The position numbers and the translations under genes are program-made. From assembly GCA_965261615.1 (NCBI GenBank), contig OZ253461.1:313223-377222 (forward strand): a DNA stretch of 64,000 bases, in the 5' to 3' direction. Shown in pieces: positions 17,110-49,668 of this stretch (position 1 is the stretch's first letter; each line of letters starts with the position of its first letter). The DNA is from Alphaproteobacteria bacterium (GTDB lineage: Bacteria > Pseudomonadota > Alphaproteobacteria > Bin98). The notes beneath the pieces are model-generated. The model was not told where the DNA came from. It saw only the letters and a list, made by a program, of their open reading frames with translations, and did no database searches.

Positions 17110-17121
17110 GGGGGGGGGGGG
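17110..17121. repeat. Homopolymeric poly-G tract (G12) in the 448-bp intergenic region upstream of the 17402 gene
   Basis: Twelve consecutive G read directly from the sequence. Longest homopolymer in the window, inside an unusually long non-coding spacer (16954–17401). Confidence 0.9.
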
Positions 17122-17401: not shown

Positions 17402-18307
17402 ATGGTGAAGGTCTGTGTTTTAGTTTTGATAGGTTTAAGTGTTTTTTCCGCTGAAGTGGCGTACAAGTGCGCAAGCGATCGAGTCCAGATGTCCCTGGAT
17501 CTTTTTGAGCCAATAGCAAAGTTTGTGTCAGGAATTGACAAGCCAGCGTCTCAAGCTGTAGCGTCTTTTTATGAACGTGAAAACGCATGCTCCCATACGG
17601 ATGTATCTGTATGGAAAACGCAAGGTGAGCCCGCAGACATAAGCGATTTGCTGGTAGGTTTACGTAAACTTCAAGCTGCTTGGACTTCTGATACAGATAG
17701 AGCAAGTTTTGATCTTCCTGGGCTATTGGCCCAGGTTAATATGGGGGGGGCTTTGGTTGGAGATCTTACAGCAAGTGGAGGAAAAGATGCTTATGGCGGA
17801 CTATTATTAGGCTATTTGGCACCTAAACTATCAATGGGAGAGTTATTTGAGCTGCTTAAGCAAGCTTCGGGCATGAAGTGCTACCGATCGTCTGTCGCAC
17901 TGCTTATTTGGCATGCTATAAAAAACAGGTTTGATCAAAGAGTTGATCAACTGGAGCCAGCATTTCAATATTTGAAGTTTTTAGTGATGCAGGAAGGGCT
18001 GTCTAATAGTTATGCGAAGAGTGAACTGGATAAGGTGAGCCAATATTTGTGTAACACTTATTGGTGTAATGTGGGTGCTAAAAAGTCTGCTGAGGAGTTT
18101 TTGACTACACATTGTGGTTCGTGTGAGAGTATAGCGCAAATGGAGTTGCTTGCATATGCTGGCGATGCACTGCAGCGAGCAGAGCAGGATGTCGCACTGA
18201 CAGAGTCGTCTGTGGATGATTCAGCGCCAGTGGAGTTGTGTGCATATCATGGTGCTGAACGGCAGAGGGAAGAGTGGAAGGTTGCGCTGACAGAATCGGC
18301 TTTATAG
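17402..18307 (+). CDS. Internally deleted 855-type family protein (about 301 aa)
   Basis: -10 'gTTACAAT' at about 17366. N-terminus 'DLFEPIAKFVSGIDKPASQAVASF' matches genes at 24899 and 34147 for about 110 aa, then joins directly to the C-terminal module 'YLAPKLSMGELFELLK ... FQYLKFLVMQEGLSNSYAKSELDKVSQYL'. The junction lies at a G8 tract (17743–17750). Confidence 0.75.
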   Translation: MVKVCVLVLIGLSVFSAEVAYKCASDRVQMSLDLFEPIAKFVSGIDKPASQAVASFYERENACSHTDVSVWKTQGEPADISDLLVGLRKLQAAWTSDTDRASFDLPGLLAQVNMGGALVGDLTASGGKDAYGGLLLGYLAPKLSMGELFELLKQASGMKCYRSSVALLIWHAIKNRFDQRVDQLEPAFQYLKFLVMQEGLSNSYAKSELDKVSQYLCNTYWCNVGAKKSAEEFLTTHCGSCESIAQMELLAYAGDALQRAEQDVALTESSVDDSAPVELCAYHGAERQREEWKVALTESAL

Positions 18308-18340
18308 ATTGCTGTTTGACTGGAGATAACAGAAAAGAGA

Positions 18341-20437
18341 ATGTCGCGTATAACAAAATTTTTAATACTTTTGAGCTGGGGCTGCGTAGCCGCTAGCCTG
18401 GAGAAACCCTCGGGAGAACTTGAGCGTGTAAATATTTCGTATCTTGCACAAGCGTATCATACTCTAGTCGTAAGGGCCCCTTATATGATGTTTGCAAATG
18501 AAAAGGCGATAGGTCTATATAATAATCTGTGCATGAGTTGGAGAGGGGTGTTGGGTGAGATAGTATCTTGTGAGTCATTTCAACCGCTGGTTGTGCAAAG
18601 TGGACCAGCTCCTACAAGCGCTAATTTCCTTCCGCTAAAAAACAGAGCTGCGGACTATTTGTTTAGCAATAGTCGTCAGATGTTAGTATGTCGTGTGCTT
18701 GATCTCTTGTGCGGCTTGAAAGAGCGGTTTGTTGATGCGAACGTGAAAGATTTAACAGAGGCGTTAATTCAGAGTCTTCCCAAAAACGATGATGTGCGCG
18801 AGTGCATACTCAAGTTTAAAACGGAGGTGGATTTTGTCATGTCAGAGGATCTTATGTGTGCGTGTGCGCGCGCGCAGCGGGATGGATCTAACTCTGTATT
18901 GAAGTGCTACGATGCCGATTTTTATGAATTTCTGTGTGCCGGAGAGCAGGGCTATACAGTACTTTTAGCAGAAAGTTTAGAGTTTTTTCAGCCTTTTTTT
19001 AAAATGATTTCGCAAGCTGACACTCCTCTGTTTGCTGTTATAAATAATGCGCGATTGAGGTATGAAGCTTTGCGAGCAGATTATGGTGGGAGATGTATTC
19101 ATTCAGATGACCATATCACAAACATTAGGGGTTTAACGGCTAAATTGCATACCCTGAAAGCCCAACTTGGCACCCGAAAAGAGGATGCGCAATTTGTGAC
19201 TTTATACTCTGGGCGGAGTGTAGACGATTTTTGGATGGAGGTGTTGAGCTATGTGCTTCAAAAAGGCACGGAAATGCAAGCTTCATGTGTGGGTACGCAA
19301 GGTTTCGTAGCGTTTTTAGAAAGCGTTGGAGTTGAGCCATCCATTATAGCTGAATTTTGCACAGTTGTTACACAGCGGTTAGGGTGTGGGACAGAGTGTC
19401 ACCATCTCGATAAAAACACAACATATTATAAATTTGTTTCTGGGGTGGAAATCAAGGGGTTTGTTCAGAGTTTGATTGACGGTCCATGTATTTGTACACG
19501 GGAAGGTTCCCCACCAGACCATCTTTTGCAATACATGGGTTTTTTAGTGACTCGCTCGGGGACTAACTGGTGGGAGGTGCTCGATGGATTGCAGGAAAGT
19601 GGCTGCCAATATGGGAAAAAAGGAGATCAGTATTTGGATACCGCTTGGGCTCACCTTGTGAGCGCGAGATTTGACTTAGCTGACGTGTGTGCGTACCTTA
19701 GTTTGATGGAGGAAAAGCTTGCTGCATTCCCGCAAGATCAGGCGCGGTTGGTGGAGATCGTGTGTAAAAGGATTAACCTTAGGTGTGGTGCTTGCAGTAT
19801 TTGGGCGGAGGATCGTGGTGTGAAATGGATGATGGGTAAGCTTAATAGCGCTTTGCATGCGATGCAGGGCTATAGAACCCCAGATATAAAAATAGTGAAC
19901 GTTGATATCACTAATGTGGATAAAATGATTGCTTTGATGGATCGTATGATCCGTGAGAGAAGTGTAGAATTTTTGCAGTTAGTTGTGAAATGTTTGCCGG
20001 AAAAGACAGGTTTTGGTGTGCCTCAAGGTGTGGGTTGTCTGGAAGAAGGGACTTTATACCGGGGTTTGCTAGAAGGTCACAATACACTGCATTTTTTGAT
20101 GAATATTGTGTCTTGTAAAGATAGGGCACACACAGGGCAAGAGCGGCAAATCGTGTATAATGTCTTAACAGAGTATTTGCAGCGATTAGGGTTTAAGTTG
20201 CTTGCCTTTGATCCACCACGGGCGTTGTCGGACGTGATACAGGCTCAGAGCAGGAACAGCGCGAGTGAGACGGTTCCACTTGATTGTGTGTTGGCGATGG
20301 TAAAAAAAAGCAAACAGTGGCGGGAAAGGCATGCTGAGCAAGCGTACTATTGGGGAGGAAGGCGGCTTTCTGATGGACGGGTGTACTTTTTTTGTGAGTC
20401 AAAGGATGAGGCGGAATATCGAGGGTCGCGGTTGTAA
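18341..20437 (+). CDS. Secreted family protein (698 aa), 720-type
   Basis: Signal MSRITKFLILLSWGCVAAS. 'GLYNNLCMSW', 'FLVTRSGTNWWEVLDGLQESGCQYGKKGDQYLD', 'FLQLVVKCLP'. Paralog of genes at 22585, 27498 and 36740. Confidence 0.85.
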   Translation: MSRITKFLILLSWGCVAASLEKPSGELERVNISYLAQAYHTLVVRAPYMMFANEKAIGLYNNLCMSWRGVLGEIVSCESFQPLVVQSGPAPTSANFLPLKNRAADYLFSNSRQMLVCRVLDLLCGLKERFVDANVKDLTEALIQSLPKNDDVRECILKFKTEVDFVMSEDLMCACARAQRDGSNSVLKCYDADFYEFLCAGEQGYTVLLAESLEFFQPFFKMISQADTPLFAVINNARLRYEALRADYGGRCIHSDDHITNIRGLTAKLHTLKAQLGTRKEDAQFVTLYSGRSVDDFWMEVLSYVLQKGTEMQASCVGTQGFVAFLESVGVEPSIIAEFCTVVTQRLGCGTECHHLDKNTTYYKFVSGVEIKGFVQSLIDGPCICTREGSPPDHLLQYMGFLVTRSGTNWWEVLDGLQESGCQYGKKGDQYLDTAWAHLVSARFDLADVCAYLSLMEEKLAAFPQDQARLVEIVCKRINLRCGACSIWAEDRGVKWMMGKLNSALHAMQGYRTPDIKIVNVDITNVDKMIALMDRMIRERSVEFLQLVVKCLPEKTGFGVPQGVGCLEEGTLYRGLLEGHNTLHFLMNIVSCKDRAHTGQERQIVYNVLTEYLQRLGFKLLAFDPPRALSDVIQAQSRNSASETVPLDCVLAMVKKSKQWRERHAEQAYYWGGRRLSDGRVYFFCESKDEAEYRGSRL

Positions 20438-20469
20438 TGGTGATGAAAGATTTTGTTGAGTGAGGAATT

Positions 20470-22047
20470 ATGCAATTGTATTTTTTTATATTATTTAGTT
20501 TAAGCTGCGTGGCGGCGGATGTGGGGCCTTTGCAAGATCAGCAGATATGCCTTGAAAAAGCACAGCAATCCTTAGATGTTTTTGCACCAGTGTCGGCTTT
20601 GATTTTAAAAAGTGATAAGCCTGCGTGTGGTGCAGTAAAGGCTTTATACAGTAAGGTGAAGGAGCTAAAGGCTGTTAGTGGAGAAATTTGGGACCCTTGG
20701 TTTGAACGGTCCGACATTAGTGAGGTGACGGCACTACAGGAAGGGCTCCTTAAAATAGAGGGCGTGGAGTGTTCAGAAAATAACGAGCTCTTTTATCTCC
20801 CAGGACAGCTGCAAGGGTGCAGCATGGATGGTATTTGGGCAGAAATTTTACAGGAAGTCGATTGCGCGCTGTTAGGGGGGCGGAACTCTTTGTCCTGGGA
20901 GTGCTTTTCTATCGCGTCTTTTATGGAGAGCAAAAAAGTGGACGCTCAACACCTAACTCTCTATTTTTTGAAGTGTATAGAAGCCCAACCGAGGTGTGTG
21001 CACTTTTCATGTAAAAGAGTGCTCACAGCTCGGAATTTTGTAACTCAGAATTTTGCAAAAGGTAAAAAAATAGATTTTTTCATTGATCAGATAAAGGGGG
21101 CGACTCATGGCTCTGGTGAATTGTGGGCTCGTTTAAGGAGTTACCAGAGCTATCTACAAAGTATGCAATTTGTGAACTGGTGGAGTTTTATCACTGGTTT
21201 GATTAAGATTGGGGCGCGGTCCCATGGGGACGGCAGTGAAATACTGAGCTCGGTATATGAAACCCTTATGAAACAAGGTGGTGATTTAGGGGAGGCCCTT
21301 GACCACTTGAAGAGCGTGGAGAGCATGGATCTTGAACGAGATGCTAAAGAAGATGCCTCTGATCAGTTGATTAGATGGTTGAGTGGAGCATGTGGCGGAA
21401 TATCTTCTATATGGCAAGGTAGTCGTGTGCGTAATGTAACACAGCATAAACTGAGCAACATAATAAGTAGTATAGATCGATTAAAGGAGAGCAGATCAGA
21501 GGGTTTCTGGAACCTCATGGTGCAGAGTTTACCTCCAAGAGGTCTGGGTCAATGGGAAGTTTTAGATACGGCTGATTTGCAAGAAGGACTGTATAAGAGA
21601 GTGATAGAAGGGGCGGATGCTATAGAGATCATATCGGATATGCTGGATGCAGGCAAAGCAAGTGCAAATCCTGAAGGGAGCGAAAGGGCCGTAAGAAATG
21701 TTACGTCGTATGTTCATTACTTGTCGCTGCATCACTCTGTTGCCAAGCTATTCATCATGTTACGCCAGGTTCCTGGTAAGATGAAAGAGAGTTCGTTGGT
21801 GTCAGGTTTAATTTGGGAAAAAATCAAAAAAAAGGGGCGTATCTTTGATGGGACCCTGATTGCTTACGTAAAGTTTGTAATATTGCAAAAAGAGCTCAGC
21901 GAGGAGTATGCTCAAAAAGAAATTATGGAGGCTTGTGCACTCTTGCGGCAGACAGGTTTTGACAATTCTGCTCGAAGGTTTTTGAATGGTTGGCAAGTTG
22001 CTGAGGCTCAAAGACATCGACTAGATTTTGTTAAACTGAACCTATAG
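20470..22047 (+). CDS. Secreted family protein (525 aa), 609-type
   Basis: RBS GAGGAA. Signal 'FSLSCVAADV'. 'PACGAVKALYSKV', 'FVNWWSFITGLIKIG', 'FWNLMVQSLP' and C-module. Confidence 0.85.
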   Translation: MQLYFFILFSLSCVAADVGPLQDQQICLEKAQQSLDVFAPVSALILKSDKPACGAVKALYSKVKELKAVSGEIWDPWFERSDISEVTALQEGLLKIEGVECSENNELFYLPGQLQGCSMDGIWAEILQEVDCALLGGRNSLSWECFSIASFMESKKVDAQHLTLYFLKCIEAQPRCVHFSCKRVLTARNFVTQNFAKGKKIDFFIDQIKGATHGSGELWARLRSYQSYLQSMQFVNWWSFITGLIKIGARSHGDGSEILSSVYETLMKQGGDLGEALDHLKSVESMDLERDAKEDASDQLIRWLSGACGGISSIWQGSRVRNVTQHKLSNIISSIDRLKESRSEGFWNLMVQSLPPRGLGQWEVLDTADLQEGLYKRVIEGADAIEIISDMLDAGKASANPEGSERAVRNVTSYVHYLSLHHSVAKLFIMLRQVPGKMKESSLVSGLIWEKIKKKGRIFDGTLIAYVKFVILQKELSEEYAQKEIMEACALLRQTGFDNSARRFLNGWQVAEAQRHRLDFVKLNL

Positions 22048-22220
22048 AGCATATGAGTGAGCGTGTGTTGAGCTTATCGTGAATGATACGATGTCCGAAT
22101 CTTCTGGTCGTTTCTCGTGTAATTGGGTGCTGAACGGTGTTGGGGCAATTAATTTTATTTAATAATTGTGTGGATTGAATTTTTGCGCTAGCATGGTCTA
22201 AAAGGACAATTCAGTTTAGT

Positions 22221-22547
22221 ATGAAGTTGATGTTTTTAATGGCTTTGGGGTTTAGTGGTGTTGCAGCAGAATTGTCGGAAGAAGACGTGAGCATGCGTAT
22301 TGAGCGGGCTTTGGATCTGTTTGCACCAATAGCAAAGTTTGTGTCAGGCATTGACAAGCCAGCCTCTCAAGCGGTAGTGGCCTTTTGCGAGAGAGAAAGT
22401 GCAAACTCCTCAAAGGAGCGAGTCAGATGCTGGAGAGAATCAAGTGAAATAAACCACTTACAAGAATTACTGCCTTGTTTACTTAACCTGAACACAGCTT
22501 CAGCTGGACGTAATCCAGGCTTTGATTTTCCTGAGTTGGTAGTTTAA
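22221..22547 (+). pseudogene. Truncated 5' fragment (108 aa) of an 855-type gene
   Basis: Upstream promoter and leader copy (22150–22220) and the first about 100 codons are homologous to the 24899 and 34147 genes. Ends right after the 'GFDFPELVV' motif, where the full-length genes continue for a further roughly 750 aa. The -10 is degenerated to TAGCAT. Confidence 0.7.
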
Positions 22548-22584
22548 ATTTTGGTGGATTTTTGGGATGAAAAGAGAGTTAATT

Positions 22585-24701
22585 ATGTTTATGAAAATGC
22601 TAATGGTTGTAAGCTGGAGCTGCTTGGCGTTGGATCTGGTGCAGAACCCGCACGCTGGCGTAGTGATGAAAGCGGAAGGTTTTTCTATTTCTAAGGCGGA
22701 ATATGCCTCTCTTGTGGCTCACGCAAGTAGTATGGGTTCTGCGAGTGAGAGGGCTGTAAGCTTGTACAATCAAGTGTGCGCGCAGTGGAAGGAGCGCCTA
22801 GGGTCTTCTGAGCCACTTCAGCCTGTGGTGGCCTCGCAAAAGCAAGAGAAAATAATAGATGTCGGGCTTTCACTGCAAAGCAGGGCGGCGGACTATTTGT
22901 TTCGCAGCAGACATCAAATGGCAGTGTTGAGAGTGTGGTTTGGTTTAGCGTCTTTGCCTCGGGGCGTTGTTGATGAGACGGTGGAAGAGTTAAAGGGTGA
23001 GTTGCTGAAGAGCCTGCCAAAAATGATGATTTGCTAGAGTGCATACGTAAGTATAAGGAGGGAGATTTGGTTATTTCGGATCAACTGGTGTGTGCGGGTA
23101 TGCATGCGATAAATGCGGGGCTATACCTTCAAGGGTTAGAAGAGTGTGACCAAGACTTTTTTGAATTTTTGATGCAGTGTGAGAAAACCTATGTTGAGAG
23201 GTTGGAGACAAGTGTGGGGTTGTTTCAGCATTTTTTTCAAATAACTGCACAAGCGGACACGCCTCTTTTTAAGTCTATACAAAATGCTCAGTTGCGATAT
23301 CATGCCTTGGCGGCTAAGCACGGTCGGAGCGTGCTGCCGTGCTGTAAGCATATAGAAAGAGTCAGTGATTTAGTGAGCAAACTGAAAGCCTTGAAACGCA
23401 GCTTTGATGGGCATAAACAAGATGCGCAGTTTGTAACGTTATATACAGGCTGTGATATAGAGCAGTTTTGGGCAGAGGTCTTGCGTTATGTTCTCCACAA
23501 TGGTGAAGAAATGGTTGCGTCACCTAAGAGCACGGCAGGTTTGGTAAGCTTCCTAGAGAGCGTTGGTGTAGCGCCGTCTAATATAGCGGAACTTTGTGCG
23601 TGTGTTACAGGGCGTGAAGCCGTTAATGCAGGTGACTGTAAGGGTGTTGATAAGACCGCAACATACTATAAGTTTGTTACCGGACAAGAAATAGGTAGAT
23701 TTTTGAACCTTTTGTTGAATTGCTCGTGTCTCTGCCCAAACAATCCTGAAGATCATATTTTGAAATACATGGATTTTTTACAGAGGCAAGGGGGCGTTAA
23801 CTGGTGGAGTGTTTTGTCCGGTTTGATGGAAGCTGGCTGTCAATATGGACAAAAGGGCGACCAGTATTTGGATAGAGCATGGGGCAAGCTTATGAGCGAT
23901 AGGTTTGACTTAATCAACGTATGTCAGTACCTTTGTGAGATGAAGGAGAGGCTATCTTCCTTACCGCAGTCTCAGGATAGATTGGCACAGATTGTGACTA
24001 ACAGGCTTAATCGTCGATTAGGCCCAGGCAGGATCTGGGATCAGGATTGCGGGATGAATTGGCTATTTGGCAAGATTAATGGAGCTCTCCATGCGCTGCA
24101 AGGCTATAGTGCACCAGGCATTAGGATTGAAGGTGTTGATGTAGTTAATGTTGGGAACATGCTTTCTTTAATGGAGAGCATGATGCAGGAGCGGGGCCTG
24201 GATTTTTTACAGTTAATTGTGCAGTGTTTGCCCGAAAAGAACACTTCAGGTGTGATGCAAGGTACAGAGAGACTGAAAGAGGACTCTCTATACCGAAGTC
24301 TGCTAGAAGGTCGTGATACCCTGAGTTTTTTGACGAAAATTGTGGCTTGCAAAAGCCAATCGAAACAAAAAGCGTGTAATGTTTTAGTCTCGTATTTGCA
24401 AAATTTAGGCTTTAAGGTTGTACCATCTAGTACGTTAGGGTCGCTAATGGCAGTTATATCTGCGCAGAAGCCGCAAAGTGGTGAGCATGCTCCGATAAAA
24501 CTGGATCAAGTGTGGGATATGATAAAAGAAAGCGAACAGTGGTTTGCAAAAGATGAACAATCTAAAGCAACAAATTATAGGTTCCTTTCAGATGGCAGGC
24601 TGTACTTTAGCTGGGAGTCTGATCTAGAAGTATCGCACAGGGCATCACAGGCAGGAGAGCTGCAAAAGTTCGGGCTCAGCATGACGTTGTTGGCCGAGTA
24701 A
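22585..24701 (+). pseudogene. 720-type family gene disrupted by a -1 frameshift at an A5 tract (23019–23023); splits into ORFs 22567–23037 and 23031–24701
   Basis: Both ORFs align contiguously to the 27498 gene. The 18341 paralog reads 'ccc aaa aac gat gat' (KNDD) here, whereas this copy reads 'cca aaa atg atg att tgc tag'. Restoring one base gives 'LPKNDDLLECIRKYKEGD' in frame. Confidence 0.75.
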
Positions 24702-24843
24702 GAGGGGGCGAAGCGGTGCCGTTTTAACGGAAAGTTATGGACTGGGACAGATAGGTTATTCTACCTTTGCGATAAGACCTAAAAAGAGAAAAAACTCTCT
24801 AATTTGTTAATATTGGGGTGGGGGAAATTCATGTATTTAATAA

Positions 24844-24872
24844 TTGCGTGGATTGAATTTTTGCGATAAGAT
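24844..24872 (+). promoter_or_regulatory. Promoter TTGCGT-17-TAAGAT for the 24899 gene
   Basis: Same promoter and leader copied in front of three 855-type genes (22150–22220, 24828–24898, 34073–34146). Spacing is exact in all three; the -10 is degenerate (TAGCAT, 22189–22194) only in the copy before the truncated gene. Confidence 0.5.
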
Positions 24873-24898
24873 GATCTAAAAGGAAAATGCAGTTTAGT

Positions 24899-27460: not shown

Positions 27461-27497
27461 AGTTTGGTGTGTGTTGGGAGTAAGAAGAGGATTGGTT

Positions 27498-29633: not shown

Positions 29634-29719
29634 AAGTTATGTATGGCTAATGTCAAGAAAGTGTGTGCATTGATAGGAGCGTAAAGCACGGTTGTTTTAA
29701 TGGAAGTCGTAGGATTAGT

Positions 29720-32032: not shown

Positions 32033-32111
32033 GCTTATGCTGGAAGGTGTGTGCCTGAGAGAGTGGAGCGTTGATAGTTTTGGGGGTGTTAAATTCAACT
32101 AAGGGGTTTTG

Positions 32112-33938: not shown

Positions 33939-34091
33939 TTGTTTTTATACGTTTTGATTAGCATAAATCCTAAAATTGCTAGAGGTAGTGACCCAGTTAG
34001 GTGGGAGCCATAACTAGGTGCGCGCTCTGACCTGCAGGGTGAAGGTCTTCTTATGTCGTATGGTGGTGGAGAAGTTAATTTCATTTAATAA

Positions 34092-34120
34092 TTGCGTGGA
34101 TTGAATTTTTGCGATAAGAT
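34092..34120 (+). promoter_or_regulatory. Promoter TTGCGT-17-TAAGAT for the 34147 gene
   Basis: Same promoter and leader copied in front of three 855-type genes (22150–22220, 24828–24898, 34073–34146). Spacing is exact in all three; the -10 is degenerate (TAGCAT, 22189–22194) only in the copy before the truncated gene. Confidence 0.5.
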
Positions 34121-34146
34121 GATCTAAAAGGAAAATGCAGTTTAGT

Positions 34147-36702
34147 ATGAAGTTGATTTTTTTAATGGTTTTGGGGTTGAGTGGTGTTGCAGCAGAGTTG
34201 TCGGAAGAAGACGTGAGCACGCGTATTGAGAAGGCTTTGGATCTGTTTGCACCAATAGCAAAGTTTGTTTCAGGAATTGACAAGCCAGCCTCTCAAGCTG
34301 TAGTGGATTTTTGTGAGAGAGAAGGTGCTAGAGCCTCAAAGGAGCGCGTCAGGAACTGGAAAGAAGAAAAAGAAATAACCAAGCTGGAAGACTTGCTACC
34401 TTGGTTATATAATCTGAAAACAGCTTCAGCTGGGCGTAATCCAAGCTTTAGTTTGCCTGGAATCCGGATGAATGTGGATATGGGGGATCTTTGGCTGGAG
34501 ATTTTGCAGAGAGCTTGGAGTATGCCCGCTACTTATAAGGTTATTGATGGCATGGTGAATATCATGGAAAAGATGGGCGTGAAAAGACCTTATATCGCGG
34601 CTTATTGTAATCGTGTTGCCAACGTTGCGCGTGGCAATTTTCTTGATTTTGCGCCGCCCAGTCCGGAGGAGGGTACGACGTTTTATAAGACTTGGCAAGG
34701 AGAAAACACTGAGGAGCATATCTCAGGTTTGCTGGAGTGTGTGCAGATTTCGAAGGTCTATCTGACGTCTGCTTCTATTTTGGGTTATATACGGTTTTTG
34801 GACTGGAAAGGTGGGGCTAACTGGTGGGAGGTTTTCCAAGCTTTGCAAAAAGCAGAAAAAACATTTGAAGGCTGTCATGGCTCTGGATTAAATAGTGATT
34901 GGGGGGATTTTTTTAGAGAAGATATCCGCAAGACTTGGCTGAAGTTTTTTAGAGAGGACAGCAGAGGAGAAGAGAGGTTTCTCAATGAAAGCCTTACGCT
35001 TCGGGAGTGTATGGAAGAGTCTAAAAAGGAAGGTTGGGAGTGTCCACATTTGGTGATGTGTGCTGCTGCGGACGTGCCGTATGACATTTTAATGGATTTG
35101 GCAAAAACAGACCAGGAGCAATATGACTTTTGGCAGCGTTGCCGTAGAATTTATGCTGAAAAAGCAGAATCTGCGTTAGTGATTTTTGTGCCAGTGATAA
35201 ACCGTATTCAGCAGTCGAATTCTAGGGCGTGTAAAGCGGTGCAGTCCTTATACTGTAAGGCAAGGTCGGTGCGGCCCCCTCAAGAAAAGAACTCTGTGTG
35301 GGATAAAAGCCAACCGGTGATTAACGACATTGGACAATTGCGTACAGGCTTGCGGGCATTAGAGCTGAATTGTGCGCAACAAGGCATGGAGAGCTTTGAG
35401 TGGCCAGGGCGTTTATTTGGAGCTGATATGGGTAAGATATTTTTGGATCTTAACTATGATACGCAAACTTTATTTGATGTGATAGAAATAACAAACCTAA
35501 TGCAAAGAGTGGGAGTGCACCCAGATTTTGTTTTACAATACTGTTTTTTTTCTGCTTCTGCAGTATGCGAGGCGCCCAAAGGACAATTTTTCCGCACATG
35601 GAGCTGGAGAAGTTTGGATTCAGAGGCGACAGCGTATAAGTTTTTCTATGGGCAGAATATTGACCAGTTTGTTTCTCATATTATACTTAACGAGGAGAGT
35701 GATGGGTTTGTACACTGGTCAATTGCAGATTATTTGAGCAAATACGTAGCATACTTATCTTGGAAGGGTTCTGTGAATTGGTGGGGCTTTCTTTTGGGTC
35801 TGTACAAAGGTGGTGCGTCACGAAAAGGAAGGCTTGCGCCAGTCTTTGCGAGTGTGTGTAAACAGTTGCTAAACGAGGTGGGTGATTGTGATAAAGCGTA
35901 TGATTATTTGGAAAGTGTAATTGAGCAGGGGCAGCTGAGTGCCGGCCTAAAGCAGGAAGCGCTAGAAGGCCTCTTGGATTGGTTGGTGCGATATCGTCAG
36001 GGGGCGTCTGCACTATGGATAGATAAGCGCCAAATGAAAAATGTGAGTATGTCTACAGTGAGCCAAATGTTGGAGATTATACACCTCTCCATGCGTGAAA
36101 AAACGCTAAGCTTTTTTGATTTTGCCGTTCAGAGTTTGCCAACAGAGCGTATGTTGCAGAAAAGTGGAGGAGTGCAGTGTCTTCCGGAAGGTTTCTACAA
36201 AAATTTGGTGGAAGGAAAAAGTGCCATGCCATTTTTGAGCGAGATGGTGTTGACAGGGAGCCTTTGCAAAGAGGGGCAGGCGCAAGCTGAGAGGAATGCG
36301 GCTCATTACATAGGCTATCTAGCACCTAAACTATCATTAGAAAAGCTGGTGGATATGCTTAAGTCTGTGCCTAGTCTTCAAAAGGGTCAAGAAGTCGTAT
36401 CGTCACTCTTGTGGGGTGCAATAAAAGCCAAGAAAGAAAAGAGGGTGGAGCCGCTACTGCAATATTTGAAGTTCTTACTACAGCAAGAAGGAATGTCTTT
36501 GGTTTATGCAGAGAAAGAGATCGATGAAGTTTGTCATGATCTGCACGCTTTAGGAGGGCAAAGAGTTGCGGAAGCCTTTTTGCGAAATCACTGCAGTGAA
36601 TGCAGCACTGCAGAGCAGCTGTCTTTACGCACGCGTGCTAATAAGATACTGCAGCAGCAGGAGCAAGAGAGTGACCTAACAGAGTGGAGCTTAGTAGTTT
36701 AA
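34147..36702 (+). CDS. Secreted family protein (about 851 aa), 855-type; recent duplicate of the 24899 gene
   Basis: Promoter TTGCGT(34092–34097)-17-TAAGAT(34115–34120). Long stretches are nucleotide-identical to 24899–27460 at offset +9248, with a divergent mid-gene patch. Confidence 0.9.
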   Translation: MKLIFLMVLGLSGVAAELSEEDVSTRIEKALDLFAPIAKFVSGIDKPASQAVVDFCEREGARASKERVRNWKEEKEITKLEDLLPWLYNLKTASAGRNPSFSLPGIRMNVDMGDLWLEILQRAWSMPATYKVIDGMVNIMEKMGVKRPYIAAYCNRVANVARGNFLDFAPPSPEEGTTFYKTWQGENTEEHISGLLECVQISKVYLTSASILGYIRFLDWKGGANWWEVFQALQKAEKTFEGCHGSGLNSDWGDFFREDIRKTWLKFFREDSRGEERFLNESLTLRECMEESKKEGWECPHLVMCAAADVPYDILMDLAKTDQEQYDFWQRCRRIYAEKAESALVIFVPVINRIQQSNSRACKAVQSLYCKARSVRPPQEKNSVWDKSQPVINDIGQLRTGLRALELNCAQQGMESFEWPGRLFGADMGKIFLDLNYDTQTLFDVIEITNLMQRVGVHPDFVLQYCFFSASAVCEAPKGQFFRTWSWRSLDSEATAYKFFYGQNIDQFVSHIILNEESDGFVHWSIADYLSKYVAYLSWKGSVNWWGFLLGLYKGGASRKGRLAPVFASVCKQLLNEVGDCDKAYDYLESVIEQGQLSAGLKQEALEGLLDWLVRYRQGASALWIDKRQMKNVSMSTVSQMLEIIHLSMREKTLSFFDFAVQSLPTERMLQKSGGVQCLPEGFYKNLVEGKSAMPFLSEMVLTGSLCKEGQAQAERNAAHYIGYLAPKLSLEKLVDMLKSVPSLQKGQEVVSSLLWGAIKAKKEKRVEPLLQYLKFLLQQEGMSLVYAEKEIDEVCHDLHALGGQRVAEAFLRNHCSECSTAEQLSLRTRANKILQQQEQESDLTEWSLVV

Positions 36703-36739
36703 AGTTTGGTGTGTGTTGGGAGTAAGAAGAGGATTGGTT

Positions 36740-38842
36740 ATGTCTATTATTAAAATGTTAATACTTTTAAGCTGGAGCTGTGTAGCAGCGAGCTTGGAAA
36801 AGGTCTCAAGTGAATGGGGAAATCAAGAGTACGCGCAGCTTGTGATTGAGTACCATGCTCTGGCCTCAAGGTCTGGTTATATGGTGAAGGCAAGTGAAAA
36901 GGCAGTAGGCCTGTATAATACTGTGTGTGCGCAGTGGAGGGAAAAGTTGGGTGACCGGGTGTCTTTTGCGCAGTATCAGCCGGTAGCTGCTGAAGAAAGG
37001 CCAGCACCAATAATAGAAAGTGGCCCTACGTTGCAAAGTAGGACGGCGGACTATTTGTTTTACAATAAAGATCAGATGTCATTATTAGGCGTATATGTTT
37101 GCTTGGACACTGTGGTTGAGAAGTTGGTTGATGAAAATGTGACAGCGTTAAAAAATGAATTAATGCAAGTTTGGTCCGATAGTGAAGATCTCTTAGAGTG
37201 CATACAACAGTTTCAGCGTGATATAGACTTTAGTTTTTCGGATCAACTGGCGTGTGCGTGTGCACACGTAAAGTCTGCAGGAGGTGCCTTTATGAGCCGA
37301 TTGCAGATGGCTGATAGAGGGCTTTATGATTTTCTTTGTCGGGGTGAAAGTGTGTATGTCGAGAGATTAGCAACCAGCCTATCGTTTTTTCAACCATTCT
37401 TTCGAATAATTTTCATCGACAGAGACGACAGCCCTCTGTTTTATGTTATAAATGAGGCTCGAGCACGATATCGTGCGCTGAACGACTATACTATTACACC
37501 GGCAACAAGTTTGCCGGGTAAAATCGAAAACACCTCAGAGCTAGTGCGCAAACTGACAGCCTTGAAACATAGCTTTGATGAGAATAAACAAGATGTGGAG
37601 CTTGTAACGTTATATACAGGCTGTGATATAGATCAATTTTGGACGAGAATGTTGAAAGGTATATGTCGTCATGGAACGGGCATGTATGCGTCATGTGCTA
37701 GTAGAAGTAATTTAGTGAATTTTTTCGAGCTTGCTGGAGTCGAACCATCTGCTATAGCGGAGCTTTGTGTGTGTATTGCGGAGGGCAAGCCTTGTGGTTG
37801 CTGCCGCCAGAAAAACACAAGATACATGCACTTTATTCAGGGAAAAGACGTAGGGTACTTTTTCAAACATTTATTGAATGGTGAGAGCCACAGGGAAAGT
37901 GTTGATGGCGAAAATCCAGAATATGTTTTGCAGTATATGGATTTTTTAGAGAGTGTTGGTGGAACTAATTGGTGGAATGTTTTAGACACATTGATGGATC
38001 TTGGTTGTCAGTATGGTCAAAAAGGTGACCAGTATTTGGATGTCGCTTGGGGCAAACTTGTGAGTGTAAGGTTTGGTTTAGCGGACGTGTGGGAGCATCT
38101 TAGTGCGATGAGCGAAAAGTTAGCGGATTTACCGGAGTCTAGGGAAAGACTGGTTGAGGTGGTGTGTCATAGGCTTAACCTGCGATTTGGTGTGGGCAGT
38201 GTTTGGGCAGAAGGCCATGGAGTGAAGTGGTTGTTTAGCAGGATAAATAGGGCTATACATATGTTGCAGGGCTATGGAACACCAGATATTCAGGTAGAAA
38301 ACGTTGATGTTAGTAATGTTGCTAGAGTAATTTCAATCCTGGATCGCATGGCCCCAAATAAGAGCACAGAATTTTTTCAGTTCGTTGTGAAGTGTTTGCC
38401 AGAGGCGCCTAGTTGTATCCGGGGTGTGGAGGCTCTGGAGGAAGGCTCTTTATACCGTGGTTTGCTAGAAGGTAGTGGGACTGTGGAGTTTTTGATGAAT
38501 ATTCTGTCTTGTGGAGACAAGGCGCACGAACGTAAGGAGCAGAAAAAAGTGTGTAATATTTTAACAGAGTATTTGGAACGCTTAGGTTTTAAGCTGACTG
38601 CTCCGCACGCACTAGGGGAGCTAGCACAGGTTATATCTCACCAACAAGTGAAAAGTGGAACAAATATACCGGTGCCTTTGGAGCTTGTGTGGAAAAGAGT
38701 TCAAAACAGTGAGCAGTGGCGAGATAAGGATATGCCTTCAGTTAGTTATTTGTTTGTGCCCAGGGCTCAACCGGACAATAGACTCTACTTTTGCTATGAG
38801 ACCGAAAAAGAGAAAAAACTTCGTGATTCGCAGAGGAGGTGA
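36740..38842 (+). CDS. Secreted family protein (about 700 aa), 720-type; chimeric relative to the 27498 gene
   Basis: First roughly 890 nt near-identical to 27498–28390. Sequence diverges abruptly after 'LVTLYTGCDI(D)QFW' at about 37633. Confidence 0.9.
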   Translation: MSIIKMLILLSWSCVAASLEKVSSEWGNQEYAQLVIEYHALASRSGYMVKASEKAVGLYNTVCAQWREKLGDRVSFAQYQPVAAEERPAPIIESGPTLQSRTADYLFYNKDQMSLLGVYVCLDTVVEKLVDENVTALKNELMQVWSDSEDLLECIQQFQRDIDFSFSDQLACACAHVKSAGGAFMSRLQMADRGLYDFLCRGESVYVERLATSLSFFQPFFRIIFIDRDDSPLFYVINEARARYRALNDYTITPATSLPGKIENTSELVRKLTALKHSFDENKQDVELVTLYTGCDIDQFWTRMLKGICRHGTGMYASCASRSNLVNFFELAGVEPSAIAELCVCIAEGKPCGCCRQKNTRYMHFIQGKDVGYFFKHLLNGESHRESVDGENPEYVLQYMDFLESVGGTNWWNVLDTLMDLGCQYGQKGDQYLDVAWGKLVSVRFGLADVWEHLSAMSEKLADLPESRERLVEVVCHRLNLRFGVGSVWAEGHGVKWLFSRINRAIHMLQGYGTPDIQVENVDVSNVARVISILDRMAPNKSTEFFQFVVKCLPEAPSCIRGVEALEEGSLYRGLLEGSGTVEFLMNILSCGDKAHERKEQKKVCNILTEYLERLGFKLTAPHALGELAQVISHQQVKSGTNIPVPLELVWKRVQNSEQWRDKDMPSVSYLFVPRAQPDNRLYFCYETEKEKKLRDSQRR

Positions 38843-38928
38843 CGCAAACTGCCTCTGTTAGAGAGAGGTGATGCCGCCCTATGACTTTGTTGTGGTGCCT
38901 CTGTGAGGCGAGCCTTTTATTTTTGTGC

Positions 38929-38957
38929 TTGACATCGAAGGAGGGTTGCTGTACATT
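38929..38957 (+). promoter_or_regulatory. Sigma70-type promoter TTGACA-17 bp-TACATT for the 38982 gene
   Basis: Perfect -35 hexamer, 17-nt spacer and near-consensus -10, about 25 nt upstream of the start codon. Confidence 0.6.
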
Positions 38958-38981
38958 AAATTTAATTGATTGGAGTGGAAG

Positions 38982-41900
38982 ATGCAGATGTGTATGTTTA
39001 TTATTTTAAGTTTAAGTTGTTTGGCGCTTGATGTGCCTGAGGTGGGTTTGGGTGCTCTGCAAGATGCAATTAGCCAGAGTATGCCTCAGGGCACTACCCT
39101 TGAGCAATGTGTTGCAGACTACAAAAAAGATGGCTGGCAGTGTACGGCAGCTTTAGCGAGTGCAGCAGCGAACTTTTCTGGGGACAAAGAGGAGCTGTGG
39201 GAGACCAATAGGGATGTGCTTGGTTTTTTGTCGCACTGCCAGGGGGTTTATTTAAAAAAAGCACGCGTGCTGTTGCAAAAGTGTAAGCCACTGTCTTTCT
39301 GGATGCTCAACAGTAACATGCCTGTTATTAGCGCCATAAAGAGGGTGAAGGCAGTATGTGATAAGGTTATCTGCGTAAGCCGTTTTCCTCAGCATGACTG
39401 GTGGGGTGGCCAAGATGAGACCTCGATGGAAGCCTTCCATGCAGGGCTTCTTCAGCTAGACTCATGCCGTGTGGACGGCCAGTGGAGCGTAGAGGGCTTA
39501 GAGCTGCTGCCGAGCTGTAATATGGATGACATTTGGGAGGAGCTTTTGCTTGCAGTCAGCATGCGAGGGTCGTCAGGTGACTTTTATCAAATATCGGATA
39601 CTGTGACGTTCATGGAAAAGCGACATGTTAGTAGAGAGAGTATAGCCCTCTTCTGTTTGAGATATGCAGACATAGTTTGTCTTAGTGATCTGAGATCATT
39701 TGAACCAAGCAATCGTGAAGGGCACCAAGGCTCAACCTTTCGTAAATTTTATGATGGAGAGGACATAGCGTTTTTTATGCAAGATTTGTTTGCCTGCATG
39801 CAAGCACCGCATATAGGTGAGGAGAGGCCAAAAACAAACTATATTCTTCAGTACCTGCGCTTTTTATCCTGGGGAAATAAGGGTGATTTTTGGTGCAGCT
39901 TCCGATCTTTGCAAAAATGTGAAGAGCTTGAACCAAGTAACTCTATCGTATCTTCTTTTGTACAAGATGCTTGGGATTACCTTGTAGGAGGGGTGTTTGC
40001 AAACCCATCCTCTTACACTCAGAAGACGCACCTGAAGCGGTGCATACAAGCGCATAAAAAAGAGGAGTTCATGCCGAGTTCTACATTTGTGAAAGAACTC
40101 CAGAACCTTGATTTGACGCAAGAGGAAGAGTTTCTGCAAAAAGACAGGGAACTTTATGACTTTTTAAAAAGCTTCCAGGATCAAGTTTTTTCTAGAGCAG
40201 TGGCGTGTTTAGAAGCATTTGCACCACTATCTCATTGGGTACGAAAGGTGAACTTGCCTGTGTGCCGTGCTGTACTGTCTATGTATACCTGCGTGCGGGA
40301 GTGGCAACATCGCCTTGGAGAAGGCGCGGACCCTTGGAGCGACCAACCTCAAATGCAAACAGTGAAAACATTGAATGCCGCGCTTGTTCATCTGGGTTCA
40401 TATTATGCAAGTCATGCAAGTGATAAATGGGCTCATGTTACCCTAGATCTTATGCCGCCCTGCGATATCAGTGCTATTTGGGAGGAGATTTCGCTGCAAG
40501 CATGGAATGCTGGTCTGTCAGGGGACTTTGCGGCGGTAAAGGAAACAGTCTCGTTTATGGAACAGAAGGGTGTTAAAGCAAGCACTATAGCTCTTTTGTG
40601 TATGCGATACGCAGATCTAGTTCGCATTCATAATTTGCCAAAATTTGTCGTGAAATATACGGTGGGGGATTACCATACAACGTTTTATAAGTTTTATAAT
40701 GGAGAAAATATAGATTGTTTCATAGGGCGCTTGCTTGAAGCTGCAAAAGATAGGCGGGTCCATGATACCAAAGAGCTTGTTCTGAACTATATGCTGTTTT
40801 TACAATGGAAAGGTGGACTTAATTGGTGGAGTTTTTTTCGGGCTTTGCAAAAATGTGAAGAAAATTTGTCTTTTGAGGACGCAAATCATAAAAGAGTGCA
40901 GCATTGCTTGGCGCAGGTGTGGGGACAACTTGTGGGAACTTTGGATGAGGACCCCTCGGACCAGACTCCGGGTACTTTTATTAAAAGAGTTACTCGAAAA
41001 GGAGTTGCCTTTGAGTCCAGCCCTTTGCTCTTAAATGTGGCTGTAGACCTTCCCAAGGATGAGGTTGCGGGGCTTTTGCAAACAGAAGCGGAGCTTTGTA
41101 AGTTTTTAATGCGCTTTCAACAGCAGTTTTTGGATCAAGCAGAGCAGGCTCTAGAAGCATTTGCTCCAATTTCTAAGTTTATGTTAAGCTACGACAGCCC
41201 AGAGTGCCGTGCTGTAATATCCTTGTATCATAAGGTTTTGAAGCTATCTCCGCGTCAGGGCCTATCTTGGGATCGAGTTGCCACAAATGACGACTTGGAA
41301 AGCGTTGTGGGTGCGCTGCTTCAAGTAGAAAAGGTGGCTAATTCATCAGAGAAAGGTGCCTTTTACCTGCCGGGCAGTATGGAAGGGTGTGGTATGGACG
41401 GTATCTGGGAGGAGTTTTTAGACACTAGTCTTAGCGGAACATTGTGCGACTTTTCTGATTTAGTGTGCTTAATGGAAAGAAGGCGTGTGAGTGCGGCGAA
41501 AATAGCGCGTTATTGTCTTCGTCATGCTGTAAATATTGCTCAAAAGAGCAATCGAGGATTTTTGGCAAACGTCGGATATGTTTATCCGGATCGTTGGAGG
41601 AAAATGGACAAAAATGACACAGTGTATTGCTTTTTCTATGGTAAAAATATAGCTGAATTTATTCAGCTTCTGATCACAAGTCATGGTTCGGACACAGAAG
41701 AGACTAGACGTAATTTGTTGGATTATCAACAATATCTAACGTGGAAAGGTCAAGTTAATTGGTGGGAGTTTATCGATGGCTTGTTGTGTAATGGCTTTAG
41801 CTATAATGATAATCCAGAGGTCTTTGCTCCAGTATGTAGCCTGTTAAAAAGAGAAGGATCTACTTTAGAGAATGCTCTTGATCACCTTTGTTTCCTTGGA

Positions 41901-42662
41901 GGTTTGGAAGTTGATGGGCAGACTAAGCATGAAGCTATTGAGAGTTTGTTGATATGGCTGGGAGACTCTCATGAAGGAATTTCTGCTATATGGAAAAGGG
42001 GAGGCCGCGTGCGTAATGTGACAAAGCTGCACCTTGAGGCGCTGATAAGCCGTGTAGATACGTTAAGCGAATGTAAATCAGAAAGGTTCTATAACTGTGT
42101 TGTGCAGAGTGTGCCGTCAAGGGGGATGTTTCAGTCGCGCGTTGACACACGTGACTTGCCGGAAGGTCTTTATAAGCGGGTGATACAAGGAGAAGGTGCA
42201 ATAAGGTTTATTGCTGATATGCTGGATGCGGGGGGACAGAGCGGAGAAAGAGGTCGGTCTGAAAGAAATGCTCAGGCGTATTTAAAGTACTTGTCGCCAC
42301 AGCTGTCTGCGGAGGATCTTTTGGGGATGTTGGCTCAAGTGCCTGATCATGTAAACGATTGCTCCTTTGTATCTGGTTTGATTTGGATAGAGATTGCCCA
42401 AAAGAGGGGGGTTAAAGAGAGCAGTCTTCTGTCATATTTGCAATTTTTGATAGGGCACGCGTCGCTTGACTGGTCTTATGCGGAAAAAGAAATCCAACAG
42501 GTGTGTGGTTATTTGCGAGCGTTTGGGGACGCAAGGTTTACGTTATCCAATTTGGGGATAGGTGCAAATTACTTGAGTGCTGATCAGGTGAAAAGAGCTC
42601 AAGTAGCGGAACAAGAATTAGGTTCAAGTGCCCGTATCCTGGAAGGTTATGATGTCTTGTGA
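38982..42662 (+). CDS. Secreted family protein (about 1226 aa) with a three-fold internal repeat of the N-domain
   Basis: Consensus promoter TTGACA(38929–38934)-17-TACATT(38952–38957). Signal 'IILSLSCLALD'. Three successive copies of [WxCTAALA / DFLxxxQ / AFAP...P(V/E)CRAV...Y / GC.MDxIWEE / FYKFYxGExI / YLxFLxWKG..WW.F], then FYNCVVQSVP and the C-module. Confidence 0.9.
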   Translation: MQMCMFIILSLSCLALDVPEVGLGALQDAISQSMPQGTTLEQCVADYKKDGWQCTAALASAAANFSGDKEELWETNRDVLGFLSHCQGVYLKKARVLLQKCKPLSFWMLNSNMPVISAIKRVKAVCDKVICVSRFPQHDWWGGQDETSMEAFHAGLLQLDSCRVDGQWSVEGLELLPSCNMDDIWEELLLAVSMRGSSGDFYQISDTVTFMEKRHVSRESIALFCLRYADIVCLSDLRSFEPSNREGHQGSTFRKFYDGEDIAFFMQDLFACMQAPHIGEERPKTNYILQYLRFLSWGNKGDFWCSFRSLQKCEELEPSNSIVSSFVQDAWDYLVGGVFANPSSYTQKTHLKRCIQAHKKEEFMPSSTFVKELQNLDLTQEEEFLQKDRELYDFLKSFQDQVFSRAVACLEAFAPLSHWVRKVNLPVCRAVLSMYTCVREWQHRLGEGADPWSDQPQMQTVKTLNAALVHLGSYYASHASDKWAHVTLDLMPPCDISAIWEEISLQAWNAGLSGDFAAVKETVSFMEQKGVKASTIALLCMRYADLVRIHNLPKFVVKYTVGDYHTTFYKFYNGENIDCFIGRLLEAAKDRRVHDTKELVLNYMLFLQWKGGLNWWSFFRALQKCEENLSFEDANHKRVQHCLAQVWGQLVGTLDEDPSDQTPGTFIKRVTRKGVAFESSPLLLNVAVDLPKDEVAGLLQTEAELCKFLMRFQQQFLDQAEQALEAFAPISKFMLSYDSPECRAVISLYHKVLKLSPRQGLSWDRVATNDDLESVVGALLQVEKVANSSEKGAFYLPGSMEGCGMDGIWEEFLDTSLSGTLCDFSDLVCLMERRRVSAAKIARYCLRHAVNIAQKSNRGFLANVGYVYPDRWRKMDKNDTVYCFFYGKNIAEFIQLLITSHGSDTEETRRNLLDYQQYLTWKGQVNWWEFIDGLLCNGFSYNDNPEVFAPVCSLLKREGSTLENALDHLCFLGGLEVDGQTKHEAIESLLIWLGDSHEGISAIWKRGGRVRNVTKLHLEALISRVDTLSECKSERFYNCVVQSVPSRGMFQSRVDTRDLPEGLYKRVIQGEGAIRFIADMLDAGGQSGERGRSERNAQAYLKYLSPQLSAEDLLGMLAQVPDHVNDCSFVSGLIWIEIAQKRGVKESSLLSYLQFLIGHASLDWSYAEKEIQQVCGYLRAFGDARFTLSNLGIGANYLSADQVKRAQVAEQELGSSARILEGYDVL

Positions 42663-42945: not shown

Positions 42946-43935
42946 TTACGTGCTACGTGTCTCCAGTTTGGCTTCTACCTGTTTGATCATCTTAAATAGC
43001 TCTTGACTTTCGCCCGCATAGCCTTTCGGATGCGGTGTTGTGCTGTTGTGTGGTTTCAGGTCAATGAGAACATACTGAAGGGGTCTGTGGGCCGCTCTAG
43101 GTGGGCATGTTGGAATAGTGACATACACCATTTTGTCACCAGAATATAAGCGTTGTGCGGCTAGTTCTAAACTTGCTGGCTGCCATTCTCTAGGGAAGAA
43201 TAGGGGGGCGGCACCTTCGCATAACGCTTTGCTGCTTGAGGGTATGTCTTTGCACTCTTCTGCTTTCAATAGGAAGAGTGGGATATGTACTTCCATGAGA
43301 ATGCCCCATAGGTTTGTTTCCCATGAGACAGGTGGAAAGGAGAAATCGTTTAAAGAGGTTGGGTGTTGATCTTCTTTTGTGGCAGAGGGATTGGTGGTCT
43401 GTAGCATATGCGCTTCTTGCAAGCTCGCTTTTTGCGTATTTTGGTCGATAGTGGGTGGTGTTTCGCTACTCTGGGTTTCTGCAGTGGGCTCATGTTTTTG
43501 AATTTCCTGCATGAGCTCCTTCTCATTGGCTTCACTTTGATCTAGCATAGATTGCAGATGTTGCGCTATGGGGGGCCAGTATGTAGAGTGACGCTGTTGC
43601 TGAAGTACTTTGGAGAGTATGCGATTGTGCTGTTGCGTATTTTTTAAAAAATTTTCCACTTCTGCGACGCTCACGTTCGCCCCCTGTTCGTTCGTCCACG
43701 GTTCGTTCGCCCACTGTTCTTTCGCCCACGGTTGTGTAGCAGAGTCTGCGACGCTCACGTTCGCCCCCTGTTCGTTCGCCCACTGTTCTTTCGCCCACGG
43801 TTGTGTAGCAGAGTCTGCGACGCTCACGTTCGCCCCCTGTTCGTTCGCCCACGGTTCGTTCGCCCCCTGTTCGTTCGCCCACGGTTGTGTAGCAGAGAAA
43901 AGAGCTGATATAAATAAGATAAATAGTATAACCAT
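42946..43935 (-). CDS. Secreted protein (329 aa), family A of the minus-strand block, with an N-terminal pentapeptide-repeat region
   Basis: Signal peptide. The tract 'WANEQGANEPWANEQGANVSVADSATQP' is repeated. C-terminal half (CEGAAPLFFPREW...GDKMVYVTIP...TTPHPKGY) is about 60% identical to the 48784–49656 ORF. Confidence 0.8.
   Translation of the reverse strand: MVILFILFISALFSATQPWANEQGANEPWANEQGANVSVADSATQPWAKEQWANEQGANVSVADSATQPWAKEQWANEPWTNEQGANVSVAEVENFLKNTQQHNRILSKVLQQQRHSTYWPPIAQHLQSMLDQSEANEKELMQEIQKHEPTAETQSSETPPTIDQNTQKASLQEAHMLQTTNPSATKEDQHPTSLNDFSFPPVSWETNLWGILMEVHIPLFLLKAEECKDIPSSSKALCEGAAPLFFPREWQPASLELAAQRLYSGDKMVYVTIPTCPPRAAHRPLQYVLIDLKPHNSTTPHPKGYAGESQELFKMIKQVEAKLETRST
43650..43905 (-). 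repeat. Nested tandem repeat (15-bp subunits within 69–84-bp units, about 3 copies) encoding (W/G)ANE(Q/P) pentapeptide repeats
   Basis: Repeated 'gcgacgctcacgttcgccccctgttcgttcgcccac(t/g)gttc(t/g)ttcgcccacggttgtgtagcagagtct' units. The overlapping ORFs on both strands (GERTGGERTV..., CSFAHGSFAH...) are repeat artefacts. Confidence 0.85.
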
Positions 43936-43973
43936 AGAGGGATAGTAACCTATTTTTTCTGTATGTGCAACCG

Positions 43974-48760: not shown

Positions 48761-48783
48761 GTATGGTCGTCGCTCAGGTGGGG

Positions 48784-49656: not shown

Positions 49657-49668
49657 TCTAGCATGAGT

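Follow-up and report, generated by a model that had tools for sequence, protein, structure and literature searches.

What has been duplicated, and by what process have the copies come to differ, in a locus that is filled for most of its length by tandem genes of a single family? The window (the whole stretch of DNA analysed, 64,000 nucleotides of contig OZ253461.1) carries an array of predicted exported proteins, for which an earlier sequence-only reading of positions 17402 to 42662 proposed a three-gene unit of 855-type, 720-type, and 609-type genes, reiterated about five times (here U1 to U5) and damaged differently in each copy. Sequence comparisons within the window indicate that the unit that duplicates is a 4.8-kb pair of an 855-type and a 720-type gene, which carries its own upstream region and does not include the 609-type gene. 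The array as a whole is probably a birth-and-death family under concerted evolution, shaped by duplication of this pair, gene conversion, internal deletion, and module duplication.

All-versus-all BLASTP and a hidden Markov model (HMM) made from an alignment (A1) of 609-type and 855-core sequences connect all 24 large plus-strand open reading frames (ORFs), and the HMM matches every large plus-strand ORF at 7-42662 and 51117-62958. The copies resemble one another well beyond chance, with BLAST E-values of 0 to 1e-20 and as much as 95% DNA identity across 3.6 kb. Judged by these matches, the 855, 720, and 609 types are module variants of one orphan modular superfamily, which comprises 27 genes or fragments in the window and occupies 52.5 of its 64 kb (82%). 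The gene order and all of the lesions described earlier for 17402-42662 are borne out by the ORF listing, by all-versus-all BLASTP, and by TBLASTN with intact representatives. The genes are real and lie where they had been placed, but the family is not restricted to that region and extends across 7-42662 and, also on the plus strand, 50700-64000. The tandem array is longer than 64 kb, with both window ends overrun by family members; P0015 begins upstream of the window, and P0017 begins inside it and extends past the downstream end. By summed gene lengths the family makes up ∼4.7% of the 1.47-Mb genome (a single contig), and most of its DNA in the genome lies in one leading-strand array. The segment at 17402-42662 is the most recently active part of this array.

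Sub-HMMs resolve the gene types into combinations of modules of 250 amino acids (aa). The 609-type consists of a signal peptide, a "pre" segment, an A module, and a C module, and the U4 copy (32112-33938, plus strand, as are U1 to U5 and the gene that follows them) has this reference architecture. The 855-type has an additional A module ahead of a 609-like core (signal peptide, A', pre, A, and C), and the 720-type has a signal peptide, an N-terminal X module, and diverged A and C modules. A fourth architecture, with a signal peptide and two C modules but no A module, is found at 13162-15096, 52927-55146, and 55240-57153, and the 295-aa product of 57238-58125 corresponds to the N-half of a 609-type protein only (signal peptide, pre, and A). 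The giant 609-like gene that follows U5 (38982-42662, 1,230 aa) had been described as having three N-domains, and HMM searches confirm three A modules and one C module. In a neighbor-joining tree of A modules, the extra N-terminal A of the 855 genes and of the giant shares a group (bootstrap 100) with the A modules found in 720, 4448, and 60640. The first two A modules of the giant, A1 and A2, are sisters (bootstrap 84), so that duplication within the gene accounts for part of its origin. The idea that A and C are themselves diverged copies of one repeat was ruled out (hhalign probability, 0.4%).

The edges of DNA homology are informative as to what has been duplicated. Self-BLASTN and alignment of the upstream sequences show that homology among U2, U3, and U5 starts at the same point, ∼85 bp before the 855 ATG (at 22136, 24811, and 34059, respectively), the shared upstream region spanning 22136-22220 in U2, 24811-24898 in U3, and 34059-34146 in U5. 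At the other end, U2-U3 homology stops 3 bp past the 720 stop codon, at 24704 and 29636. Between these edges, 24811-28400 and 34059-37642 are 94.9% identical, the latter tract running from the upstream region through the U5 855 gene (34147-36702) and on into the U5 720 gene, of which it covers the first ∼300 codons. The 3' part of the U2 720 gene (23371-24704) matches 28300-29636 of U3 at 82% identity, and 22136-22533 matches 34062-34459 at 85%. U3 (24811-29636) presents the pair with both genes intact (855 at 24899-27460 and 720 at 27498-29633). Its two ORFs are 10 nt apart, the ORF listing starting them at 24887 and 27471; the corresponding starts are 29663 for the U4 855, 32109 for the U4 609, 34135 and 36713 for the U5 855 and 720, and 38970 for the giant. 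Given that the gaps between 855 and 720 ORFs are only 10 to 33 nt, the two genes are probably cotranscribed and the pair is probably an operon. The shared upstream region of U2, U3, and U5 contains a candidate promoter (TTGCGT-17-TAAGAT, recognized at the level of consensus only), and the 38843-38981 interval before the giant contains a terminator-like hairpin followed by a promoter-like TTGACA-17-TACATT; the consensus scan for promoters and terminators performed no better than on shuffled sequence.

The sequence-only reading had named phylogenies of the individual modules as a check on its unit, and these uphold one part of it and contradict another. The 855 N-terminus gives ((U3,U5)100,U2)83 with U4 and U1 outside, and the 5' half of 720 gives ((U3,U5)100,U2)100 with U1 outside, and these congruent trees indicate that 855 and 720 coduplicate. 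The 609-type genes do not. Their copies are mutually only 35 to 42% identical, the U4 copy (32109) groups with copies from outside the region (15202 and 51117, bootstrap 100), and the U1 and U5 copies pair at 46% support only. On these relationships the 609-type genes are older and lie outside the recent duplications.

A reiterated three-gene unit is thus not supported, given the two-gene homology edges and the 609 phylogeny. Under that model, a true [855][720][609] unit expanded to some five copies, after which loss or damage struck a different member in each. It accounts for the presence in U1 of all three types at 32- to 33-nt spacing and of a 609-like giant after U5, for an 855-type gene standing first in every unit, for the monophyly of each type, which unit amplification predicts, and for the basal position of U1 in the trees of both 855 and 720. 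The triplet is complete in U1 only, or in U5 too if the giant is counted as a 609. However, the next unit begins ∼100 bp past the end of the U2-U3 homology, which leaves no room for a 609 remnant, and the giant is preceded by promoter-like and terminator-like signals of its own. Moreover, an 855 lies directly before a 609, with no 720 between them, both in U4 and at 50700/51117. Together with the low identity of the 609-type copies and the outside affinities of 32109, these observations make the three-gene model rather improbable. The second case involves an 855-type 3' relic (50700-51104, plus strand), a 134-aa ORF without a signal peptide that is 53% identical to 855 aa 745-853; it is the sixth 855-type remnant, and the 609-type gene at 51117 begins 12 to 33 nt after it. 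Because the trace of 855 sequence in U4 (below) and this relic both precede a 609 gene, a second and older kind of adjacency, [855][609], probably exists.

In U1, the 855-type gene (17402-18307) has an in-frame internal deletion that fuses aa 2-117 to aa 700-853, with a G8 run (17743-17750) at the junction; it is followed after 33 nt by an intact 720-type gene (18341-20437) and, 32 nt past the stop of the latter, by a short form of the 609-type that lacks the pre segment (20470-22047). The U2 855 copy (22221-22547, 108 aa, 76 to 78% identical to the intact copies) had been described as a 5' fragment. It does retain the 5' portion, but it is not a simple fragment; the signal peptide and ∼105 codons run in frame at 22535/22536 into the final three codons of the gene and its own stop (FPE, then LVV and stop), and the native 855-720 junction comes next. 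The 5' breakpoint of the U1 deletion falls within ∼10 codons of that of the U2 stub. Both of the 855 deletions that retain the 5' end are in frame, for which the chance is 1 in 9, and this may reflect either chance or selection for translation that runs to the 720 start. The U2 720 gene (22567-24701) is put out of frame by the loss of one base at 23016/23017, adjacent to an A5 run, and the rest of its ORF is intact. In U4, TBLASTN with intact representatives shows that the 855-type gene (29720-32032) is missing the final ∼100 aa of its C module; it matches the 855-type only to aa 755 and continues with 34 unrelated residues. A trace of the 855 terminal codons is present out of frame at 32051-32080, ∼30 nt before the U4 609 gene, although this trace is marginal (score of 28 versus a shuffle maximum of 26).

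We also note that ∼80 to 100 nt encoding LDLFAPIAKFVSGIDKPASQAV are 78 to 89% identical at the DNA level in all five 855 5' regions (17487-17582, 22312-22409, 24981-25076, 29798-29897, and 34238-34316), and that the remaining U1 sequence outside this stretch has diverged past DNA-level detection. The conservation of the stretch reflects either strong constraint or microconversion.

The copies have also exchanged segments. In sliding windows along 720, U3 and U5 are 93 to 100% identical over codons 1 to 300 and 51 to 69% thereafter, with an island of ∼82% at codons 551 to 625, whereas U2 and U3 are 46 to 64% identical to codon 275 and 84 to 93% thereafter. Parsimony-informative sites favor (U3,U5) by 119:1 before nucleotide 927 (codon 309) and (U2,U3) afterwards, with a (U3,U5) island at nucleotides 1651 to 1800 (14:5 sites), and the max-chi2 statistic is 159.6 (permutation p<0.001). 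The U3 720 gene is therefore U5-like to codon ∼309 and U2-like beyond it. The U5 720 gene (36740-38842), previously singled out as a chimera, is a real mosaic, with ∼300 U3-like 5' codons and a 3' part that is 51 to 69% identical to U3 and loosely closest to U1, but the U3 gene is at least as chimeric.

The 3.6-kb tract shared by U3 and U5 is patchy, with mismatches of ∼10% over 24811-25400, ∼0.8% over 25400-26600, ∼15% over 26600-27200, and ∼1.3% over 27200-28400. Its edges are abrupt (>60 mismatches per 100 nt), one end lies inside the 720 gene, and its longest identical run is 529 bp, compared with a permutation mean of 108 and a maximum of 263. Between the two intact 855 genes, synonymous divergence (dS) is ∼0 over codons 200 to 500 and 0.1 to 0.29 on both flanks, and nonsynonymous divergence (dN) equals or exceeds dS over codons 551 to 700. 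This alternation of identity and of dS points to conversion tracts of different ages laid over an older duplicate, rather than to localized positive selection alone. Approximate dS values are ∼0.3 to 0.4 for U2/U3, ∼0.2 for the U3/U5 background, and ∼0 for the latest tracts, within an overall range among copies of ∼0 to 1.4; dN/dS is 0.30 to 0.46 in old pairs and 0.66 to 0.80 in the youngest. The array thus contains tandem paralogues of graded age, fragments and a frameshift, and conversion tracts. The graded divergence and the variety of lesions bear out the earlier view of a birth-and-death expansion in which each copy is remodelled differently.

Mosaic genes with sharp breakpoints are also what programmed antigenic variation of the vls, msp2, or pilS kind produces, in which one expressed locus is rewritten unidirectionally from silent donors. 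The retention of truncated and frameshifted copies, the hypervariable 855 codons 551 to 700 with dN at or above dS, and the export of the family are all compatible with such a system. Its chief difficulty is that 22 of 25 copies carry a start and a Shine-Dalgarno-like motif of their own (against a 34.5% background, p=5e-8), and nearly all keep the start codon and a signal peptide; a single relic, that at 50700, is 5' truncated. In addition, self-BLASTN finds no conserved recombination repeats flanking variable cassettes, the converted tracts are kilobases in size and include promoters, and dS values of 0.2 to 1.4 between copies point to exchange over evolutionary time and not within an infection. 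We regard programmed variation as very unlikely. The suggestion that some copies serve as sequence donors consequently holds in part; exchange is supported by the max-chi2 result, the patchy dS, and the 529-bp run, whereas silent cassettes are disfavored by the retained Shine-Dalgarno-like motifs, starts, and signal peptides. The Shine-Dalgarno enrichment, together with operon-like (10-nt) spacing, the occurrence of GTG and TTG starts, and a replichore-like skew (below), also indicates that the genes are bacterial, and a eukaryotic or giant-virus origin, suggested by the many leaders without a charged n-region, is rejected on these grounds.

At the other extreme, the array could be an old expansion that is eroding neutrally, with most copies nonfunctional. 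In its favor are the deletions, the frameshift, the truncated 3' end, the relic, and a relaxed dN/dS (0.3 to 0.8). Yet ORFs of 525 to 1,230 aa remain open, dN/dS is below 1 in all old pairs, Shine-Dalgarno motifs are retained, structural models are confident, and the conversion tracts with dS of ∼0 are recent; the persistence of ∼70 kb of dead DNA in a genome of 1.47 Mb would also be surprising. Simple decay is barely credible against this record.

The sequence patterns show three steps of birth-and-death with concerted evolution. The 4.8-kb [855][720] unit has been duplicated in tandem with its upstream region, presumably by unequal crossing-over. The paralogues have exchanged sequence, probably by homologous recombination or gene conversion, giving mosaic genes and near-identical patches. 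Copies have also undergone internal deletion (in frame in two cases), a single frameshift, and duplication of modules within a gene. Diversification would arise from these processes and not from a dedicated cassette-switching machine.

Every protein of the family has an N-terminal hydrophobic leader of 15 to 25 residues, which typically ends in V-A-A ahead of an acidic residue, and is otherwise devoid of transmembrane segments; cysteine makes up 2 to 4% and tryptophan 2 to 3% of residues, and the pI is 5 to 6. The proteins are predicted to be Sec exported, and signal peptidase I cleavage is more likely than lipoprotein processing because paralogues swap the leader cysteine for glycine or serine and keep the V-A-A before the acidic residue. 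Invariant cysteines are limited to C118 in alignment A1, with none in the 15-sequence alignment A2, and cysteine positions are not conserved. An AlphaFold2 (AF2) model of the 609-type (the U4 copy) from the paralogue alignment is all-alpha with 33 helices (predicted local distance difference test [pLDDT], 87; predicted template modeling [TM] score, 0.78), and that of the 720-type is all-alpha to about residue 610 (pLDDT, 72.6). Foldseek returned nothing below E=1e-3, with TM scores of at most 0.26, and the structural likeness suggested by the models is to generic alpha-solenoids, at the level of fold class only.

By sequence, every protein submitted to homology searching (the family profile, the 855-type, the 720-type, and a 758-aa neighbor described below) is an ORFan. 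Pfam (at E<=10 even, for five members), NCBIfam, and a PDB sequence-profile search gave no match, nor did ∼15 window proteins scanned against Pfam or NCBIfam, and the 720-type search found no relatives outside. A profile search of 1.84 billion cluster representatives of ∼15 billion public proteins returned 33 proteins, comprising 22 window ORFs, 10 others, P0017 among them, from the 1,465,401-bp contig that bears the window, and one from elsewhere. This sole homologue outside the source genome, P0028, is encoded by the second of two adjacent genes on a 4.6-kb ENA metagenomic contig (L001; ERZ26695794, 1-4578) and is 46% identical to P0026, a paralogue from outside the window. The first L001 gene shows only weak similarity to the 7-2151 gene of the window (24%, E=3e-5), and the composition of the contig matches that of the window (GC of 46%, GC skew of +0.26). 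Searches of metagenome contigs, viral contigs, plasmids, and phages gave no match.

The protein family is new and appears to belong to none of the described systems compared here; the evolutionary phenomenon is of a known kind. Chlamydial Pmps are autotransporters with a beta-barrel and a beta-helix passenger carrying GGA(I/L/V) and FxxN repeats. The array resembles pmp clusters as a tandem, lineage-specific set of exported paralogues in a small genome, with frameshifted or truncated members and homopolymers nearby, but its proteins are all-alpha in the AF2 models and have no autotransporter Pfam match. Helicobacter Hcp and Legionella EnhC and LpnE are Sec-exported, multiparalogue Sel1-like alpha/alpha-repeat proteins with 36-aa repeats and are implicated in host interaction. 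The array proteins are likewise exported, alpha/alpha solenoid-like, and multiparalogue, with above-average cysteine; in contrast, five members have no Sel1 (PF08238) or TPR match at E<=10, the conserved cysteine pairs of Hcp are not found in alignments A1 and A2, the modules are of 250 and not 36 aa, and the Foldseek match to Sel1 has E=0.09 and a TM score of 0.14. For the HEAT/ARM solenoids (exportins, importins, and condensin HEAT subunits), sequence identity is 4 to 12%, the matches are local with partial coverage, and Pfam gives no HEAT hit.

In evolutionary mode, the closer parallels are babA/babB/babC of Helicobacter pylori and msp2/p44 of Anaplasma, outer membrane paralogues driven by gene conversion that are beta-barrel or surface proteins of known families. 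In these, as in the array, recombination between paralogues yields chimeric genes with sharp breakpoints, and exchange can take in 5' regions and so swap expression signals. The msp2 system has one expression site and promoterless cassettes, whereas exchange in the array is between full-length tandem genes. Segmental-conversion mosaics are shared with the cassette-type systems generally (vls, msp2, pilS, and tprK), but a single expression site served by promoterless, 5'-truncated cassettes is not found, and the 50700 relic alone lacks its 5' end. As regards phase-variable loci, one G12 tract (17110-17121, plus strand) lies in a 406-bp intergenic region, ∼285 bp upstream of the U1 855-type gene, and the U2 720 frameshift is next to an A5 run only. 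The chance expectation of a G12 run is ∼0.02 per window at 28.7% G, and other homopolymers are at most G8 or A8 in length, near chance expectation. The G12 tract could be a slipped-strand phase-variation tract or a hotspot of sequencing error.

The array is interrupted at 42946-50574 by a mostly minus-strand group that includes a second orphan family, signal-peptide proteins of ∼290 to 330 aa encoded at 42946, 43974, 48784, and 49669. The products of 42946 and 48784 are 39% identical, and alongside the family are a 758-aa leader-bearing minus-strand protein (45007-47283) and a 308-aa plus-strand protein (47436-48362). The proteins of 42946-50574 have no Pfam or NCBIfam match, and a word-indexed search of 5.8 billion sequences found no homologue of the 758-aa protein. 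Tandem peptide and DNA repeats (43532-43935; ATQPWA[NK]EQ…GANVSVADS) occur at the N-terminus of the 42946 product, and within the gene 43661-43744 and 43814-43897 are 96% identical. GC skew is +0.19 to +0.34 over the whole window (G, 28.7%; C, 16.3%). Because it persists across this island of minus-strand genes, the skew is attributed to replication-strand mutational bias and not to a coding-strand effect, and the organism appears to be under extreme strand-specific mutation pressure. No tRNA genes or Rfam families were found across the 64-kb window.

Several points weigh against the interpretation of the array as an exported birth-and-death family under concerted evolution. No third-party donor within the window was found for the diverged blocks of U3 and U5. 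The U2 720 frameshift could be a sequencing error rather than a recent pseudogene. An ancient three-gene ancestor followed by differential loss would place the 609-type genes inside the original unit, although, like the amplification model discussed above, we think it improbable. As to export, signal peptides were assessed by eye and by hydropathy, many leaders are without a charged n-region, and about half have a cysteine that loosely fits a lipobox (xxSC or xxGC). Finally, any function at an interface is inferred from export signals, family size, and evolutionary mode.

With these points in mind, it is possible, although we put it forward only tentatively, that the family is a diversified and fast-evolving exported repertoire (dN/dS, 0.3 to 0.8) deployed at a host or environmental interface. 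A more ambitious and doubtful proposal is that the array is a generator of diversity for a structurally new class of exported alpha-solenoids, in which kilobase-scale conversion between full-length tandem operons would reassort host-facing modules, swapping promoters as well, and the in-frame 855 stubs would be kept for their promoter, leader, and translational coupling to the downstream 720 gene. If true, this would be a mode of variation unlike that of the classical silent-cassette systems. The locus is a natural example of the building of a new exported protein family from modules, and it offers a putative two-gene operon as the duplicated unit together with conversion tracts that can be dated. 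If the organism is a symbiont or a pathogen, the genes of the array would be the first candidates for its host interface.

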